Positions 41,572 to 52,449 of a DNA stretch of 64,000 nt are shown one piece after another (within the stretch, counting starts at the first letter, position 1; the number at the start of each line of letters is the position of its first letter). The stretch covers positions 64,001-128,000 of the forward strand of contig JBGSZS010000011.1 in the NCBI GenBank assembly GCA_041750285.1, given 5' to 3'. Both the position numbers and the translations under genes were made by a program. The notes beneath the pieces are model-generated. The model ran no database searches and was not told where the DNA came from. It saw only the letters and a program-made list of their open reading frames with translations. The stretch is from Candidatus Fermentibacteraceae bacterium. Its GTDB lineage: Bacteria; Fermentibacterota; Fermentibacteria; Fermentibacterales; JCC-6.

Positions 41572-42476
41572 AAAATCCGGCGCCGATCCTGCTTTTTGCA
41601 TGCGCCTGCATGCAGGAACCCGGACCGGCGCCGCTGCACCCTTCATTCATCGCCGCTGAAAGGGCTCTGGGGCAGACACACTCGCAGAACTGCGTTTTCA
41701 CTTCCGACAACAGGTACGCAGTGGTGGGCGACGGCGGGTCGCTGCTGTTTCTCGAACTCGTTCACGGAAGGGTGCACGGCCTTGCCGTCCTCCCGTCACC
41801 AGTGCTTCATCTGACAACACAGCAGGGGCTTGGCGGTGTTCTTGCCATTACTGCCGATTCGCTCTACCTTGTCGTTCCGGGTTCATTCTCCGTAACGGAG
41901 CGCGCCTGGATCCCTTCCGGGGTCTCGGCCTGCGCCGTCTCGGGAAACAGGGTGTTCCTTGCCTTTGCCGACGGCGCTCTCCGTGGTTATGACCAGGAGA
42001 CCCTGGCAGAAGTGGTTGCCCGCTCTGTCTCTCCCGCCGTTTCATGTCTGGCGGGTTCACAGGGATACCTCACTGCGGCATCGGGTTCTCTTCTGTCATG
42101 CTATGAGCCTGAGCGGCTCGACCCCCTGGCGGAATACGGCGCATGGGGAGGGGTCTCACATCTCGCTTCAGCCGGAGATAACAGGGTCTGTGCCTCCGTC
42201 GGGGGAGGCAACGAGGTCGCCCTCTTCTCGGTCCCCGGGCTCGAGCTTCAGGAGATGTTCACGGTTCCCGGAACCCCGCTGGTTTCCGCTGTCCAGGAGG
42301 AACGGGAGTACGCCTTCGCGTACACCGACCAGGGCATCCTGGTGGTCGTCGGCTCGGGAGGCGGATTGGAATGGAGGACGACTGAGTTCGGCGAAGTGCT
42401 CGACATCGTCATCTCAAAGGACGGATGGAACGCCCTGCTGCTGTCGGAGAGTTCGATAACCATCCTTGAGAAGTAG
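41568..42476 (+). CDS. Beta-propeller (WD40/YVTN-like) exported protein
   Basis: Short lipoprotein-like N-terminus and repeated four-strand units; overlaps the C25 stop (ATGA). Confidence 0.7.
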   Translation: MKNPAPILLFACACMQEPGPAPLHPSFIAAERALGQTHSQNCVFTSDNRYAVVGDGGSLLFLELVHGRVHGLAVLPSPVLHLTTQQGLGGVLAITADSLYLVVPGSFSVTERAWIPSGVSACAVSGNRVFLAFADGALRGYDQETLAEVVARSVSPAVSCLAGSQGYLTAASGSLLSCYEPERLDPLAEYGAWGGVSHLASAGDNRVCASVGGGNEVALFSVPGLELQEMFTVPGTPLVSAVQEEREYAFAYTDQGILVVVGSGGGLEWRTTEFGEVLDIVISKDGWNALLLSESSITILEK

Positions 42477-42482
42477 AGGCGG

Positions 42483-43340
42483 TTACTCGCCGGGAACCTC
42501 TATCCTGACGGTGTTCCCTGCACGGTAGACAGAGAGGGCCACCGTTTCTCCAGTGTTTATGATGCCCCTGAGGGATTCGGGGTGGTAAACCCTCATTCCG
42601 CCGGCATCAATGACAAGGTCCCCGCTTCGAAGACCGCAGCCTTCCGCCCTCGAACCTTCGCATACGTCGACGATGAGAACGCCGGAAGGAGTCTCTTCGT
42701 CCATTTCCCCCAGGGTGTATGCCAGGGCCGAAACGCCGAATGGAGAACCCGAGCCCCTGACCCCGTTCACCAGGCTGCTGCTCCAGACGCTCCAGAGTTG
42801 GGAGGGAAGAAGGGCCAGCCTGTCATTTCCATCCCCGTCCGGAATGGTTCCGGTGACGATCCCGAGAAGGCGCCCCGAAGCGTCGTATGCGGCGGCACCC
42901 ATCAGCCCCGGGGCCGGTCCCATGGATAGAACGACGGAGCCGTCGTTCCTGGTGTCGGTCGTTCTGGTCTGAAGGAACGTGATCCCGTCGGAGCGGTATC
43001 CGGCAATGAATACCGCCTCCCCTGACACTGGAGCATCCAGCCGGGGGTCATTCCATCTCGAGAAAGGCTCACCGTCGAACACAAGCATGGCAAGACCGAG
43101 ATCGCGAAAAAGGATTGCGCTGTCGGGAAGAAGCCTGCCTTCGTCGGTTATGACGAAGGGCATGGCCCCGCTTGCGAAGCTGAAGAGCGTGACGGCATGG
43201 CTCGGGGAGACCGGAGCGCCGTTGCAGACTTCCACGAGTCCCATGGAATCGAGCCGCCCGAGTGCGATCACTGAGGGAGCGGCGTCCGGCATCTCCGGGA
43301 TGAACGCGCGCCCGGAGAGAACGAGAAGTAAGAGAAGCAT
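42483..43340 (-). CDS. HtrA-like trypsin-PDZ protein with degenerate catalytic motifs
   Basis: DLGLAML, PGLMGAAAYDASGRLLGI, PDZ GVLIVDV.EGS.AE.CGLRSGDLV. Confidence 0.75.
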   Translation of the reverse strand: MLLLLLVLSGRAFIPEMPDAAPSVIALGRLDSMGLVEVCNGAPVSPSHAVTLFSFASGAMPFVITDEGRLLPDSAILFRDLGLAMLVFDGEPFSRWNDPRLDAPVSGEAVFIAGYRSDGITFLQTRTTDTRNDGSVVLSMGPAPGLMGAAAYDASGRLLGIVTGTIPDGDGNDRLALLPSQLWSVWSSSLVNGVRGSGSPFGVSALAYTLGEMDEETPSGVLIVDVCEGSRAEGCGLRSGDLVIDAGGMRVYHPESLRGIINTGETVALSVYRAGNTVRIEVPGE

Positions 43341-43347
43341 CGGCCTC

Positions 43348-43785
43348 CTAGAACGTGGTTAGGGTCACGGGCCTTGTATAGGCCGACGGGGGGATCGGAG
43401 TGTACTGCTCTTCGGAGTTCCCGGAAGGGGATGCCGGCGCAACGGGGGGCATGAAGATCCTGGCGGCGAAGACAAGCATGGCAGCGAAAGGAATGATCAC
43501 CGCTGCCCTCCGCAGGAGTACAAACCTGGAACCTGCCCGGGTTTTAAGGGGGGACGTGTCATAATCGCGCAGTGAAAGCCTTGATCTTACAGCTGCCTCG
43601 AGGTTTTGGGGAGGGTTGAAGTCGGGGAGGGAAGCGACCGCCCCGGAAAGGGCCCGGGAGATCTCGAGAGCCCTCCGGCAATCCGCGCAGCCGTTGAGAT
43701 GAAAGCGGAGCATGCTTTCCTGCCTGGCATCGGTTTCACCGTCGATGCTGAGGCTTATCAATTCGAGGGCTTCACTGCATTTCAT
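43348..43785 (-). CDS. Zinc-finger (zf-HC2) anti-sigma factor
   Basis: C...IDGE...HLNGCADC plus one TM helix; ATG overlaps the sigma stop. Confidence 0.9.
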   Translation of the reverse strand: MKCSEALELISLSIDGETDARQESMLRFHLNGCADCRRALEISRALSGAVASLPDFNPPQNLEAAVRSRLSLRDYDTSPLKTRAGSRFVLLRRAAVIIPFAAMLVFAARIFMPPVAPASPSGNSEEQYTPIPPSAYTRPVTLTTF

Positions 43786-47320: not shown

Positions 47321-49866
47321 GCGCGGACACCAGTCCAATGATGCGCCAGTACCTGGCCCTGAAGGAGCGCCACTCCCAATGTGTGCTGCTCTTCAGAATG
47401 GGTGACTTCTACGAGGCATTCTTCGACGATGCCGAACTGATAAGCAGGCTGCTCGGCATCACGCTCACCGCCAGACAGAAGAAGGACGACGGCACCGGCA
47501 TCCCTCTTGCCGGCTTTCCCCACCATGCGCTTGACGGATACCTTGCGAGGCTCCTCAGGTCGGGATGCCGCGTGGCCATCTGCGAACAGATGGAAGACCC
47601 TGCAAAGGCGAAGGGGCTTGTTCACAGGGATGTCATCGAGGTCGTGACCCCCGGCACGGTCATCAGCGGAGAAAGCCTGGATCCCGGACAGACAGTTCTG
47701 CTGGCCTCCGCCCTGACATTGGGCAGCGCTTCCGCCCTGATCCTGTGCGACCTGTCCACCGGGGAGATTCGTTCCACGAGCATGGAGGCCCCCCTTCTTC
47801 TTCCGGAGATATCCAGGATGGCTCCCAGGGAACTTCTCGTTCCCGCCGGAACACTCCTGTCCTGCCCCTCCGACTGTGAGCTGACCGAGCTGGAGAGATG
47901 GAAGTTCGACACTGACCATGGAAGAAGGCTTGTGGAACAACGATTCGGGAAGGGTGCCCCCGAAGGTTTCCAGCTCACGGAGAGCCCCCCCCTGCTGGGC
48001 GCGATGGGGGCATTGCTGGCCTATCTCGAGGAAACGAAAAGGGCATCCCTTGCACATCTTCAGTTCGCGGGGAGCTACCGCAGGGATCAATCACTGGTCA
48101 TCGACGGCGAAACGGCTGTCAGCCTGGGAATAACGCACGGCGTCCCCGGAGAGGAGGAGGCGGTACTCTCCGACGTTACGGACCGCACGGTCACGGCGGC
48201 CGGTTCAAGGCTCTGGAGGCAGTGGCTTTCCGCCCCCCCAAGGGATCCGGGGACCATCACGGAAAGGTACAGGGCAATAGCCGAGCTGATGGAAAACGGC
48301 CTGTCCGAGGCTGTCCGCAACCGCTTGAAGGGCTGTTGCGACCTTGCCCGGCAGACCGGCAGGCTGGGCTCACTTCGCACCACCCCTCGCGATCTGAGGG
48401 CCATCTGCGCGACCGCCCGTCATCTTCCCGGCATTGCCGGGCTTCTTGCTTCCTCAAAGAACCCCATACTGCGCCGCATCGCCGGGATGGACACGCTGGA
48501 CGACATCGCAGAACTCATCGACGGGAACATCAGTCCCGATCCTCCCGCGAGGATCTCCGACGGCGGGGTGATTCGCGCCGGTGCGAATGCAGAGCTGGAT
48601 CAGCTCAGGGAGGTGAGGTCCGGCGGCCGGGAATGGATGAGGGAGATGGCCGAGAGGGAGAAGAAGAGCACCGGCATCGCCAGAATGAGCATCGGCTACA
48701 ACAAAGTCTTCGGCTACTACATCGAGGTCTCCAGATCATCCCTTCCCCAGGTGCCCGAAAGCTGGACGCGCAGACAGACCCTTGTGGGTGCCGAGCGCTT
48801 CATAACGCCCGAGCTCAAGGAATGGGAGGGAAGGATACTCAGGGCGGAGGAGCTTACCGCAGCCCTTGAAGAGAGCCTTTTTCAGGACGTCAGGAACCGC
48901 GTGGCCGGAAGCCTTCTGAGGATAGCGGAGACGGGAAGGATGCTCGCCGCGCTGGACGTTCTGGCTTCACTGGCGGCACTGGCGGCTGAGCGCCGCTGGT
49001 GCATGCCTGAACTTGTGGACGTACCGAGGCTGGAGATAGTCGAGGGAAGGCATCCTGTTCTGGAAAAGCTTCTTCCCGCCGGCGAATGCGTACCCAACTC
49101 CATCCTGCTCGAGCCGGGCAGGCGAATACTCCTTGTCACCGGGCCGAACATGGCGGGAAAGTCAACGATCCTCAGGCAGGCCGCCCTGACGCTGGTACTC
49201 GCCCAGACCGGCTCCTTCGTGCCGGCGGAGAGAATGGTTTTCAGCCCGATGGACAGGCTGTACACCAGGATCGGAGGGGCTGACCGCCTGACGAGGGGGC
49301 AGTCGACGTTCCTTGTTGAAATGGCCCAGGCGGCCTCCATCCTGAACGGATCGACCAGTCGCAGCCTTGCCGTTCTGGACGAGGTGGGGAGGGGCACCAG
49401 CACCTTCGATGGCCTCTCCCTTGCATGGGCGATGCTCGAGTACCTTCACGACCACAGGGAACACAGACCGCTCGTCCTTTTCGCCACGCACTACCATGAG
49501 CTGGTGGCCCTCGCTTCAAGGCTCCGGGAAGCGGCAAACGTGAACGTTCTCGTCAGGGAGACGGGGGAGGGGGTGGCGTTCCTCTACAGGATGGAGGACG
49601 GCGCCACTGACAGGTCGTACGGGATCCATGTGGCCTCCATGGCCGGTGTTCCGGCAGCAGTCATCCGCAGGGCCGCCCGTGTCCTTTCGGACCTTGAGGC
49701 GGGCCGGCACCTTCTGCCGTCCGGAACCGACGCGGAAGGTCAGCTCTCGCTGCCTCTTTCCAACCCGGCCCATCCGGTCATCGAGGAGATCAGGAACATC
49801 GACCCGGACAGCCTGACCCCGCTGAAGGCCATCGAGCTTCTCTACAGCCTCAGGGAGAAACTCTGA
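47317..49866 (+). CDS. mutS: DNA mismatch repair protein MutS
   Basis: SPMMRQY, FRMGDFYE, GRHPV, TGPNMAGKST, DEVGRGTST, ATHYHEL, SYGIHVA; GTG overlaps the GT9 stop. Confidence 0.98.
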   Translation: MSADTSPMMRQYLALKERHSQCVLLFRMGDFYEAFFDDAELISRLLGITLTARQKKDDGTGIPLAGFPHHALDGYLARLLRSGCRVAICEQMEDPAKAKGLVHRDVIEVVTPGTVISGESLDPGQTVLLASALTLGSASALILCDLSTGEIRSTSMEAPLLLPEISRMAPRELLVPAGTLLSCPSDCELTELERWKFDTDHGRRLVEQRFGKGAPEGFQLTESPPLLGAMGALLAYLEETKRASLAHLQFAGSYRRDQSLVIDGETAVSLGITHGVPGEEEAVLSDVTDRTVTAAGSRLWRQWLSAPPRDPGTITERYRAIAELMENGLSEAVRNRLKGCCDLARQTGRLGSLRTTPRDLRAICATARHLPGIAGLLASSKNPILRRIAGMDTLDDIAELIDGNISPDPPARISDGGVIRAGANAELDQLREVRSGGREWMREMAEREKKSTGIARMSIGYNKVFGYYIEVSRSSLPQVPESWTRRQTLVGAERFITPELKEWEGRILRAEELTAALEESLFQDVRNRVAGSLLRIAETGRMLAALDVLASLAALAAERRWCMPELVDVPRLEIVEGRHPVLEKLLPAGECVPNSILLEPGRRILLVTGPNMAGKSTILRQAALTLVLAQTGSFVPAERMVFSPMDRLYTRIGGADRLTRGQSTFLVEMAQAASILNGSTSRSLAVLDEVGRGTSTFDGLSLAWAMLEYLHDHREHRPLVLFATHYHELVALASRLREAANVNVLVRETGEGVAFLYRMEDGATDRSYGIHVASMAGVPAAVIRRAARVLSDLEAGRHLLPSGTDAEGQLSLPLSNPAHPVIEEIRNIDPDSLTPLKAIELLYSLREKL

Positions 49867-49881
49867 TACCGCTTCTCTCCG

Positions 49882-49910
49882 TTGACAATACACTGCCAAT
49901 GGGGTAAACT
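49882..49910 (+). promoter_or_regulatory. Sigma70-like promoter of the putative selenoprotein gene
   Basis: TTGACA (49882-49887), 17-nt spacer, TAAACT (49905-49910). Confidence 0.75.
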
Positions 49911-49952
49911 AATGCCAGAGACGTTTCATGAACCGAAAGGATGGTACCGGGA

Positions 49953-50960
49953 ATGCGTGGTGTTGTTCTCTGTGTGGCTCTCTTACCGTTCACCGTGTTC
50001 GCCGCCACGGTGCTGAACAGCTTCGACGCCCCGGACACGGGCATAAGCGGCCTGGCCTGGGGGAACGGCCATCTCTGGGCGGTCGACGGCACCACCCAGT
50101 ACGTCTACCAGCTGGACCCCACCGACGGCGAGGTGCTTTCCTCGTTCTACATCACCGATCAGACCCCATCCTACAATCCGGTGCCCAGCGGCCTTGCATG
50201 GGGCGGTTCGATGATCTACGCCCCGATGACCTACGCCTCCTCCTACGGTAAAGTCTACAAGTATGACGAGTCGGGAGTGCTTCAGGGCACCTTCGACTCC
50301 TACTGTTGAGGCAGCCCCCTCTACTCGTCGGTGACGGGTGCATGCTTCGATTCGAACTACATCTACATTCTCGGAACCAACTATTCGGGAGCTCCCGTGG
50401 TTGCCAGGTTCACCACGGCGGGTTCGGTCAGCAGCTACATGACCCTGTTCCCCGGTCTCGGCACTGGCTACCATGACATAGCCTTCCTTTCGGGAGGCGG
50501 TGTATGGATCGCCCGTGACAACGCAGACAGTCCGATACTCGCCTACAATGCCAGCGGAGTTCTCTCCGGATACGTAGAAGGATCGGTGATCTCCGCGGCA
50601 TGCGGTCTTGCCGTCGATTCCGAGGGCCATCTCTGGGCCAGCAACCCCGACGACGACATGATCTACCAGATCGATGTGATCACCGCATCCGGGGAAGAGA
50701 ACTCATCCGCGGTCACCCCAAGGTCTCTCACGGTCAGCTCGAACCCCTTCGTCGGTTCGGTCCTGATCACGGGTCAGGGTTTTGTCGGCGCCGATGTCCG
50801 GATCTTCGACGTGTTCGGCAGGACCGTCGAATCAGCGCCATTTTCCGGCAGTTATCTCTGGAACGCGCAGTCCGTCTCCCCGGGCATCTACTTCGCAAGG
50901 GTGTCAGACAGCTCTGAAACCCTCGTGACAAGGCTGGTCAAGACCGCAGGAACGCGCTAG
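49953..50960 (+). CDS. Putative secreted beta-propeller selenoprotein (Cys-Sec) with T9SS-type C-terminal domain; in-frame TGA at 50307-50309
   Basis: ORFs 49941-50309 and 50331-50960 share a frame and are joined by sense codons (YC-U-GSPLYSSVTGAC). The first part has the signal peptide and the second has the sorting tail. A SECIS-like hairpin follows the TGA. Start is 49941 or 49953. Confidence 0.75.
50322..50340 (+). promoter_or_regulatory. Bacterial SECIS-like hairpin
   Basis: TACTCGTC-GGT-GACGGGTG: 8-bp stem including 2 G-U pairs, apical GGU, 20 nt between the TGA and the loop. Confidence 0.7.
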
Positions 50961-50967
50961 GCGATTC

Positions 50968-50998
50968 GAGGGGGTGGCTTCGGCCACCCTCTCTTTTT
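50968..50998 (+). terminator. Intrinsic terminator
   Basis: GAGGGGGTGGC-TTCG-GCCACCCTCTC-TTTTT. Confidence 0.85.
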
Positions 50999-51066
50999 GT
51001 CCCCGTACTATACAGGTGTTTACATTGCGGTTCGAATTCGCTATGTATCCCCCGGGAGGTAAACAC

Positions 51067-51447
51067 ATGAACACATGGCTTGTTTCACAGGAAACGGGGG
51101 GCCGGCAGGTCAGTCCGATCAGGGTGCATTTTCAGGGTGGCGACAGGGTGGCCATTCTGCTGAACCTCGGAGACTCAGGCGCAACCGCCGTGCTCTCCGA
51201 AAGGGTCTGGTGTCTGACGGGTCCGGGCTGCGGTTCGGGCAGGCTTTACAGGACATTGTCCACCAGCAGGGCGGGTTCACGGGGAATGATGCTCCTTCGC
51301 GGCGCCAGGATAATGGACGAGGGCCGGCTTGCCGAGAACATGACCATCGGCATAATACGCGAGCTTCTCGACCTCGACGTGCACGACACTGCCAGCTGCC
51401 GTGCGGTGCCTTTCCCGGCGGGTCACCACGGCGGCTCGTGCGCCTGA
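51067..51447 (+). CDS. Hypothetical protein
   Basis: GGGAGG RBS before ATG 51067; no recognised family. Confidence 0.5.
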   Translation: MNTWLVSQETGGRQVSPIRVHFQGGDRVAILLNLGDSGATAVLSERVWCLTGPGCGSGRLYRTLSTSRAGSRGMMLLRGARIMDEGRLAENMTIGIIRELLDLDVHDTASCRAVPFPAGHHGGSCA

Positions 51448-51541
51448 TGCCCGTCCCAGGCTGAACCGACAGATTGAATAACGGTACCCTTCCAGAGCGG
51501 CTTTGATTATCGTATGGAGAAGGCGTTCACGAAGGGATGAG

Positions 51542-51925
51542 ATGTTTCAGGGAAGATGCACCGCACAGAAGCTTGCCATTGCCAGGGTCCTGTGCGAAAC
51601 ACACGATCACCCCAGCGCTTCCATGATACATGAGCGCGTCCGTGAGGTAATTCCAAACATCAGCCTCGCAACCGTATACAGGAACCTTGAAGCCATGCTG
51701 GCCGCCGGCAGGATCAATGCGGTTTCCGGCGCGCCTGAATGCCGCTTCGATGCCAATACGCTGCCACACCACCACTTTTTCTGTCAGCGCTGCCACTTGC
51801 TCAGGGATGTCCCCGCCAACGGCGTGGGAGTCTCCCTGACCTACCCGGAATCCATAGACGGCTGCAGCGTAACCGGTGCGCAGCTTCTTTTCTCCGGCTA
51901 CTGCCACGCGTGCAGGCCGGACTGA
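51542..51925 (+). CDS. Fur/PerR family transcriptional regulator
   Basis: HPSA, ISLATVYRNL, RFDAN..PHHHFFCQRC, GYCHAC. Confidence 0.92.
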   Translation: MFQGRCTAQKLAIARVLCETHDHPSASMIHERVREVIPNISLATVYRNLEAMLAAGRINAVSGAPECRFDANTLPHHHFFCQRCHLLRDVPANGVGVSLTYPESIDGCSVTGAQLLFSGYCHACRPD

Positions 51926-51945
51926 CCGATCGGAAGGGTAACCAA

Positions 51946-52449
51946 ATGGACTCCCGAGCGTTTCACAAGCTTAGCTACGGAATGTACGTGGTGGCCTCAG
52001 GCCCCGAAGGCGAATGCAATGCCCAGATCGCAAACACCGTTTTCCAGATCACATCAGAGCCTCCCAGGATGGGCATCAGCATCAACAAACAGAACTACAC
52101 GCACGAGTTCTTCCTGAAAAGCGGTGTCTTTTCCGTTTCCGTGATCACGGAAGAGGCCGACATGGTGTTCATCGGCCGTTTCGGCTTCAGGTGCGGCCGC
52201 GAATACCCGAAGATGCAGGGCATCGCGACCATGATCGGAACGACAGGTGTCCCCATCATCACCGAGAACGTCTGTGCCTATCTCGAGGGCAGGATCGTCG
52301 GCAGCCTCGACTGCGGGACCCACACGCTCTTTCTGGGCGAGGTCGTTGATTCCGGCATCCTCAGCGATGCCACTCCCATGACCTACGCTCATTACCACCT
52401 CGTAAAAAAGGGCAGGTCGCCAAAGACGGCCCCCACCTACACGGGCTGA
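51946..52449 (+). CDS. Flavin reductase-like protein (resembles the N-domain of high-molecular-weight rubredoxin)
   Basis: AFHKLSYGMYVV, NAQIANTVFQITSEP, GTHTLFLGEV, MTYAHYH, KGRSPKTAPTY. Confidence 0.88.
   Translation: MDSRAFHKLSYGMYVVASGPEGECNAQIANTVFQITSEPPRMGISINKQNYTHEFFLKSGVFSVSVITEEADMVFIGRFGFRCGREYPKMQGIATMIGTTGVPIITENVCAYLEGRIVGSLDCGTHTLFLGEVVDSGILSDATPMTYAHYHLVKKGRSPKTAPTYTG

Follow-up and report, generated by a model that had tools for sequence, protein, structure and literature searches.

The window, i.e. the whole stretch of 64,000 nucleotides of contig JBGSZS010000011.1 (Candidatus Fermentibacteraceae bacterium) that was analysed here, contains at positions 49953–50960 what is most probably one gene for an exported selenoprotein, and the UGA at positions 50307–50309 inside this gene is judged, with very little reservation, to be decoded as selenocysteine (Sec). 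A previous inspection of the bare letters (hereafter, the sequence-only reading) had noticed two open reading frames (ORFs) lying in one frame and separated by a single TGA and seven sense codons, and had assumed their joint translation into a secreted beta-propeller protein of 335 aa with Sec at residue 119. Re-reading of the window gave the same arrangement. The upstream ORF starts from ATG 49953 (an alternative ATG is present at 49941) and reaches the TGA, which is followed by GGC AGC CCC CTC TAC TCG TCG and by GTG 50331, the same frame staying open as far as TAG 50958–50960. The read-through product of ATG 49953 has 335 residues, with the TGA as codon 119 directly 3′ of Cys118 (TGT, 50304–50306). 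Starts of orthologues align with ATG 49953, and the upstream ATG 49941 is not present in all of them. In 11 orthologue pairs the ratio of nonsynonymous to synonymous substitution rates (dN/dS) was 0.05–0.10 before the TGA, 0.08–0.22 in the propeller part after it and 0.12–0.26 in the C-terminal tail.

The in-frame TGA turned out to be a property of the entire family. Search among 5.8 billion proteins returned 23 matches, the named records of which belong to Candidatus Fermentibacteraceae or Aegiribacteria. All of them except P0023 and P0024 (21 of 23) are 186–220 aa long and span only the C-terminal part of the query (~56–62%). Gene callers thus cut the family at the same point everywhere, and the database entries are halves: N-terminal pieces ending in ...C or ...CGG and C-terminal pieces of ~200 aa. 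A six-frame search that reads through stops in 70 genomes of the phylum Fermentibacterota gave 409 matches, and in all of the 150 that were listed an in-frame TGA is present at identities of 32–87%. A few of them have two TGA, or one stop more because the aligned segment extends past the end of the gene. Hand counting of the listed matches gives a family copy in at least 66 of the 70 genomes.

For 150 loci the DNA was fetched; they belong to Fermentibacterota by record titles, and the named records are all metagenome-assembled genomes of Fermentibacteria, Aegiribacteria, Sabulitectum or Hyd24-12. A regular-expression census of these loci registered 150 copies, the 66-nt contexts of which fall into 107 distinct sequences, each with TGA; neither TAA or TAG nor a Trp or Cys codon was found at the Sec site in the 107 distinct copies. 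Loci L054 and L150 were skipped by the census because of its length filters, and other alignments show TGA in both. The same TGA, which recurs far too regularly for chance, is found in fetched copies from 14 genera, so that the conservation on which the sequence-only reading had made its proposal dependent is there, with no homologue among the 150 loci carrying Trp, Cys or any other codon in its place. Spacing between the Cys and Sec residues varies: 64 of the distinct contexts have an adjacent Cys-Sec pair (C-U) and 43 have C-x-x-U. None of the 64 members in the protein alignment deviates at Cys118, at the Sec position 119 or at Gly120. A BLAST tally that placed TGC (17), TGT (6), GGT (6) and CCC (1) at the Sec site was rejected, since in the C-x-x-U subfamilies the alignment is shifted and the contexts show TGA in 80 of 80 loci. 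Two family copies have more than one TGA: in L054 (G011:C7:43511–45058) the second one stands in frame 60 codons after the first, which may indicate one more Sec or else decay of this copy, and another match with two TGA was found in G036:C26.

Relatives of another kind were registered among the best 150 of 29141 profile matches. Six of them (P0031, P0094, P0104, P0160, P0041 and P0043) are continuous, unsplit proteins having neither Cys nor Sec at this place, and their loop is shorter or replaced, so that the Cys/Sec loop looks like a module that can be gained or lost on a common scaffold. The base calls at 50307–50309, which the sequence-only reading had singled out for verification, are the same in independent assembled material. 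DNA contig X3, obtained in another study, spans 50245–50396 with the TGA unchanged, and contig X20 from an RNA library (~90% identical) spans 50073–50389, bridging and keeping the TGA. In X20 the replacement 50323 A>G is accompanied by 50339 T>C, so that the stem described below has a G-C pair there instead of A-U. Both X3 and X20 are assembled contigs, and runs X4 and X20 cover only parts of the gene.

A hairpin resembling the bacterial selenocysteine insertion sequence (SECIS), the presence of which just 3′ of the UGA had been anticipated, is conserved with covariation. In 70 distinct sequences a helix with as many as 8 pairs and a GGU cap is located 18–21 nt after the UGA (+21 in the window copy); the loop is rarely GGC or is longer and contains GGU or AGU. 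The 8-pair helix was named by hand and then tested against controls with the 3′ arm slid by 1–3 columns and against 500 shuffles. Standard pairs occupy 93.8% of cells versus 30–62% in slid controls, and six of the eight pairs are altered on both sides, one of them being C-G in 43 sequences, A-U in 20 and G-C in 7. The covariation score was 0.346 versus 0.123 in shuffles, none of 500 reaching 0.346; because the sequences are related, shuffle counts overstate significance and the slid controls are the fairer test. Compensation is partly synonymous on one side, as in the case where an upstream change of Ser to Gln goes with the Thr codon ACG becoming ACU. GGT at +15 to +30 is present in 104 of 107 distinct copies. 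The minimum-energy fold of the single sequence 3′ of the UGA pairs the UGA itself and was uninformative, so that the comparative hairpin was used instead. Rfam scan of the region 49800–51100 at E ≤10 gave four chance-level matches and no SECIS.

The SECIS element of E. coli fdhF is a stem-loop located a few codons after the UGA, with an apical G-U ~20 nt from it, and the hairpin of the window gene is alike in both respects. It differs in that the G-U of its loop comes from a near-invariant Val codon, so that constraints on protein and RNA overlap. As this codon supplies the G-U of the loop, the near invariance of Val127 is probably fixed by RNA. The same design is found in the selD gene of this genome, which is itself split by an in-frame TGA: both elements have a stem of 8 bp capped by a GGU triloop, at +23 in selD and at +21 in the window gene.

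The genome (2.55 Mb in 23 contigs, 95% complete) has the complete decoding set. It contains tRNA-Sec (73.2 bits with a cut-off of 47, anticodon TCA), SelA (434 bits), SelB (53.8 bits for the wing domain, which binds SECIS) and SelD (341 bits), i.e. all four components that were listed beforehand as necessary for the proposal. The selD gene (contig C18, 51102–52022, locus L011) is a selenoprotein gene with the motif A-G-U-A-G-K. SelA is phylum-wide: 67 of 70 Fermentibacterota genomes have it, among them all 46 of high quality, whereas the three without a match are 61–73% complete. Coordinates of the features assigned to the gene are collected in Table 1. They include the promoter-like sequence (a consensus match) and the strong terminator-like hairpin at 50968–50993, in agreement with the earlier view that one promoter and one terminator bracket the whole unit.

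Table 1. Features of the predicted selenoprotein gene and of its borders, in positions of the window.
Feature	Position	Strand	Basis
Sigma-70-like promoter, TTGACA–17 nt–TAAACT	49882–49910	+	consensus match only
Shine-Dalgarno-like AAAGGA, 11 nt before ATG 49953	49936–49941	+	by eye
Probable single selenoprotein gene, 335 codons and TAG	49953–50960	+	frame; one fold across the TGA; purifying selection on both halves; unsplit relatives without the motif
Putative N-terminal signal peptide, residues ~1–17/18 (...TVFA|A...)	49953–50006	+	by eye; hydrophobic helix of low pLDDT in the model
Predicted five-bladed beta-propeller, residues ~19–241	50007–50675	+	model (pLDDT mostly >90), structure ranking, profile homology
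Codon TGT of Cys118, invariant partner of Sec	50304–50306	+	64/64 aligned members
UGA predicted to be read as Sec, residue 119, followed by invariant Gly120	50307–50309	+	TGA in 107/107 distinct copies; independent DNA and RNA-library contigs
SECIS-type hairpin, 8-bp stem 50322–50329 with 50333–50340, apical GGU 50330–50332	50322–50340	+	covariation; likeness to selD
Predicted C-terminal beta-sandwich, type IX secretion system type A sorting domain, residues ~258–330	50724–50942	+	TIGR04183, matches to gingipain C-terminal domains, model, SprA and PorU-like genes in the genome
Intrinsic-terminator-like hairpin, 11 pairs (50968–50993), and T run	50968–51003	+	sequence

Folding of the joined protein was predicted by AlphaFold2 on a 64-sequence alignment (mean predicted local distance difference test, pLDDT, 90.6; predicted template modelling score 0.70). 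The model has one five-bladed propeller followed by a sorting domain, and the five blade motifs picked out in the sequence-only reading are the inner strands of its five blades. Blades 1–2 precede the TGA and blades 3–5 follow it, and the N-terminal strand 19–25 completes blade 5, so that neither half could fold alone. Sec119 would be in the loop between strand 110–115 (outer strand of blade 2) and strand 126–133 (inner strand of blade 3), where the local pLDDT is ~92. Invariant acidic residues D45 and D175 are located at the ends of inner strands. Profile search of PDB by sequence put “Pizza” designs derived from PknD, Brat, PknD and TRIM NHL domains first. The Pfam NHL model (PF01436) gave 12.9 bits, below its cut-off of 20, and the model has five blades, not six. 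NHL propellers (the PknD sensor domain and “Pizza” designs, Brat, TRIM2/3/71), in contrast, have six blades and neither Sec nor a type IX secretion system (T9SS) tail. DUF6923 (PF21959), a family of unknown function, is matched marginally by the window protein (27.8 bits versus a cut-off of 27) and at E ≤0.1 by 61 of 64 members, with the best value of 1.3e-9.

As to export, the N-terminus looks by eye like a signal peptide. The tail gave 32.5 bits with TIGR04183 (T9SS type A sorting domain, cut-off 23), it aligns with gingipain C-terminal domains in profile search, and residues 258–330 form a beta-sandwich in the model, all of which fits the T9SS-type tail suggested before. With Pfam Por_Secre_tail (PF18962) the score was 21.7 bits, below the cut-off of 27, and 47 of 64 members match this model at E ≤0.1. 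As to the secretion machinery, the genome encodes SprA (453 bits, above cut-off) and a full-length PorU-like protein (377 bits, below the cut-off of 420). The family also includes short forms of ~260 residues that lack the T9SS tail and end in T-W-G-x-I-K-A-T-F; tails of this type match no NCBIfam model. The more general pattern [TS]-[WF]-G-x-I-K-[AS]-x-F is common to the short forms (L064–L079) and to unrelated exported selenoproteins (L178), and may represent a phylum-specific C-terminal sorting or outer-membrane signal.

Structure comparison (Foldseek) ranked five-bladed glutaminyl cyclases first, and the same relation was obtained with profiles. Alignment of the family with 30 cyclases of the phylum by hhalign gave 95.1% (E 2.9e-8), with 207–222 columns in register over the whole propeller, versus 0.1% (E 0.47) in the reversed control. 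With a single cyclase sequence the probability was 56% over one blade and out of register, so that the comparison is significant only against the 30-sequence alignment. The cyclase model PF05096 (Glu_cyclase_2) does not match the window protein at E ≤1, and 3 of 64 members match it weakly (best E 0.0011). Both comparisons, of fold and of profile, identify the propeller as a diverged homologue of the plant/bacterial-type glutaminyl cyclase. Known cyclases of this type (PF05096; papaya 2iwa/2faw, Xanthomonas 3mbr, Zymomonas 3nol, Myxococcus 3nok) have no Sec; the window protein has the five-bladed fold in common with them and differs in the added T9SS domain and in Ser79 standing in place of E69. 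The match of the SdiA-regulated/YjiK model PF06977 was also sought, and no real one was found in the genome.

The active site of the papaya cyclase is reported to be composed of F22, Q24, F67, E69, W83, W110, N155, W169 and K225 (PMC9436314) and to lie close to the axis of the propeller, E69 serving as proton shuttle (PMC5837995). These positions were tentatively mapped by spacing onto motifs of the phylum cyclases and onto the hhalign alignment. None of the nine is kept, the aligned residues being G30, S32, V77, S79, T93, T128, H174, N190 and P232. The Cys-Sec-Gly loop corresponds in the alignment to the W110-bearing loop of cyclases plus five residues; in the family this loop, which leads into blade 3, has an invariant Cys-Sec-Gly or Cys-x-x-Sec-Gly. 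The mapping thus points to a position of the Cys/Sec pair at the former active site of the cyclase. Cyclase homology, alternation of C-U with C-x-x-U in sister subfamilies and the lack of any Cys form among the copies seen are what the present comparisons add to the description of the family.

Genomic context joins the two groups in many genomes. A single true cyclase gene (PF05096, 248 bits; contig C11, 16926–17561, minus strand) is present in the genome of the window, and it ends ~50 nt before the start of a second family member on the same strand. This member (contig C11, 15862–16854, minus strand; L044/L180), located outside the window, has the motif C-G-G-U, is 331 aa long and is 34% identical to the window protein. 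Upstream of the cyclase there is a gene of a BepA/LoiP-like M48 peptidase, so that M48 peptidase, cyclase and C-x-x-U member follow in this order on one strand, possibly as an operon for maturation of exported proteins. A C-x-x-U member downstream of the cyclase on the same strand was registered in at least 29 of 60 cyclase-bearing genomes, within 300 nt in 20 of them and at 0.8–1.9 kb in 9. The count was made by hand cross-reference of family and cyclase coordinates, and it is a lower bound because only 150 of 409 family matches were listed. Such adjacency occurs in six genera (g1, g2, g3, g4, g6 and g8), and among the listed matches it was not seen in GTDB families f2 and f3. A family member is present within the flank of 11 of 30 fetched cyclase loci. 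In genus g2 the gap of ~0.9 kb between the cyclase and the family member has no convincing ORF.

Based on this set of data one can suggest how the protein may work. It would cross the inner membrane via the Sec translocon and fold in the periplasm, whereupon T9SS would deliver it to the surface of the cell or to its outside. At this location the Cys/Sec pair would cycle between selenol/thiol and selenenylsulfide states, performing redox chemistry on a substrate bound in the cyclase-derived pocket. Cooperation of the two residues may be assumed because both are invariant and their spacing is only adjacent or C-x-x-U, which are the two spacings known for selenenylsulfide redox centres; we infer likewise that the pair faces the axial pocket and that the protein acts outside the cytoplasm. 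The C-terminal Gly-Cys-Sec-Gly of mammalian thioredoxin reductase has the same adjacent Cys-Sec followed by Gly, and its pair forms a selenenylsulfide that shuttles electrons. There, however, the pair is carried by the flexible C-terminal tail of a flavoprotein, whereas in the window protein it would belong to an internal propeller loop; the window protein has no FAD/NADPH domain, is predicted to be exported and has C-x-x-U in its sister subfamilies. A catalytic redox role of the pair appears plausible, with the balance standing about level.

Several points weigh against the picture of an exported redox selenoprotein. Among the 23 protein matches, the six unsplit relatives from the best 150 of 29141 profile matches and the 150 loci, there is no homologue with Cys in place of Sec, and the usual evidence for selenoproteins, i.e. 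pairing of Sec with Cys in homologues, is thereby missing. Four of the 70 genomes (G021, G030, G065 and G067) gave weak matches only. Taken as a single sequence the hairpin is unremarkable (z from −1.1 to −2.2), RNAalifold alone gives only the 4 central pairs (−4.1 kcal/mol), and conservation of the hairpin overlaps partly with that of the peptide S-V-T-G. Co-transcription across the TGA gains weak support from the RNA library, since one assembled contig is at hand and the library may hold DNA. The structural model was built with Cys in place of Sec. No redox partner was found in the neighbourhood, which comprises mutS on the upstream side and, downstream, a small ORF followed by genes for a Fur-family protein and a flavin reductase, and no electron donor outside the cell is evident. 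The case for selenium in the protein rests on comparison throughout.

Another use of the same pair is conceivable, that is a soft-ligand binding site held at the cell surface, which would take up a metal, a metalloid or a chalcogen (sulfide/polysulfide, selenium, arsenic, mercury) for capture, sensing or detoxification. Invariance of the pair and of the following Gly, while spacing switches between C-U and C-x-x-U, fits chelation as well as redox chemistry, and several diverged paralogues per genome are often found for binding proteins. The invariant acidic D45 and D175 at the ends of inner strands would agree with this, and, as far as titles of PDB entries tell, Cu2+ or Zn2+ is bound axially by designed propellers that are related in sequence. 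On the other hand, there is no metal transporter or resistance gene near the window copy, and Sec is hardly known to be used elsewhere outside redox catalysis, which counts against binding. We consider such a function possible but doubtful.

End-to-end homology with glutaminyl cyclase, taken together with the ordered M48 peptidase, cyclase and C-x-x-U genes and with the adjacency in no fewer than 29 genomes, may also be read as a sign that the family is an envelope maturation factor, acting on N-termini of exported proteins with a new selenium chemistry, and not an enzyme free in the extracellular space. However, none of the cyclase active-site positions survives in the inferred alignment, the window copy does not adjoin a cyclase gene, its T9SS tail points to the cell surface rather than to the periplasm, and the adjacency may only record a tandem duplication. 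A maturation role of the family is therefore regarded as unlikely, and the redox-active surface protein is kept as the preferred reading.

As regards decoding itself, the UGA might be recoded as something other than Sec (by near-cognate Trp or Cys insertion or by a local change of the code), or it might mainly terminate translation, giving a 118-residue secreted fragment and a 209-residue protein. Gene callers and public annotation do show the halves as separate or truncated proteins, a GTG stands 8 codons after the TGA, and some termination at UGA is to be expected in any selenoprotein gene. Nevertheless, the stop is always TGA and never TAA or TAG in the 107 distinct copies, it is accompanied by a covarying SECIS hairpin and by the full Sec machinery, and in the model one propeller needs both halves, with strand 19–25 closing blade 5. 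The GTG is the Val codon that gives the GU of the SECIS loop, no Shine-Dalgarno sequence was seen by eye before it, and a signal peptide is lacking in the downstream half. TGA is an ordinary stop in this genome, as it terminates the neighbouring mutS. All this makes non-Sec decoding or predominant termination very improbable. A pseudogene, with the TGA arisen from a Cys or Trp codon by nonsense mutation or by faulty sequencing, is what a lone in-frame stop in an otherwise intact gene does resemble, but it is hardly credible given the TGA in every fetched copy across 14 genera and in independent assemblies and dN/dS of 0.05–0.22 on both sides of it.

Decoding as Sec being preferred, the novelty of the family was evaluated. 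In the literature searched, no link was found of Fermentibacteria with selenocysteine or “seleno-” terms, or of bacterial selenoproteins with propellers, and a titles-level listing gave no relevant link of selenocysteine with type IX secretion. In their main texts, reviews from 2022 and 2026 as well as deep-Sep (PMC12013277) and BSepDB (PMC13326102) contain no mention of propellers, NHL, T9SS, secretion or Fermentibacter, their family lists being in supplements outside the search. Apart from the tail, no part of the family is covered by an NCBIfam model. The assumption that the family is undescribed therefore held as far as literature and NCBIfam searches reach, selenoprotein family lists in supplements aside. 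Judged in this way, the family is new, and its unusual traits are Sec that is never replaced by Cys, phylum-wide expansion and descent from glutaminyl cyclase. Public databases hold it as halves, either unnamed or named “T9SS type A sorting domain-containing protein”. Since only halves are deposited, hundreds of genes in the phylum are mis-annotated and invisible to selenoprotein catalogues.

Permanent retention of Sec makes the family a rare natural test case for comparison of selenium with sulfur, and the Cys-Sec loop, standing where a known enzyme fold has its active-site loop, would exemplify an old scaffold with a new catalytic centre. Together with other exported Cys/Sec families of the same genome it suggests that these anaerobes spend selenium on the cell surface, a use not described in the literature searched. 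Extending this line, one may tentatively imagine that the cell surface of Fermentibacterota carries a large selenoproteome, to which four or more mutually unrelated families of exported proteins belong, and that in the present family a duplicated cyclase was rebuilt into a selenoenzyme for extracellular chemistry beyond the reach of sulfur in sulfidic, anoxic habitats, for instance for turnover of polysulfides, thiols or peroxides. Sec would be obligatory in such an enzyme because no Cys form would be tolerated anywhere.

Upstream of the window copy stands mutS. On its downstream side, at 51067–52446 (plus strand), come an unmatched small ORF of 126 aa, a Fur-family regulator (63.6 bits) and a flavin-reductase-like protein (113.7 bits), after which glycosyltransferase genes follow. 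The 126-aa ORF and the Fur-family regulator are kept beside the selenoprotein gene only within the genus. Gene order was considered as a functional clue and set aside as uninformative, being conserved only within close genera.

Other potential Sec genes of the genome were collected by a crude genome-wide scan for TGA followed by a hairpin, in which most of the 108 candidates are noise. The model of Omp28-related selenoproteins, NF045500 (Omp28_seleno), does not match the window protein at E ≤1, and its sole weak match in the genome is on contig C12 (19.6 bits). About seven small genes of ~215 aa (contig C21 ~88200–89800, minus strand, L178; also C8:150794, C8:151437, C19:182641 and C13:74298) have a signal peptide, C-x-x-U (S-G-S-U in one of them) and a hairpin encoding R-Y-Q-V-V-V-L. 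The two that were translated end in T-F-G-[SA]-I-K-A-x-F, and the one scanned has no Pfam or NCBIfam match. On contig C4 (~41650–43770, minus strand, L177) there are two tandem genes with FG-GAP/VCBS-like repeats, TGA in the context Y-G-U-C-T-G, a hairpin with GGU loop and a T9SS-type tail. Genes at C18:92681 and C7:100247 (L179) have T-Q-T-G-U-G-[ST]-C and a T9SS tail and belong to the thioredoxin-like U-x-x-C type. Proteins of the FG-GAP and thioredoxin-like types have folds unrelated to that of the window protein, and their pair is U-C or U-x-x-C, in contrast to C-U in the latter.

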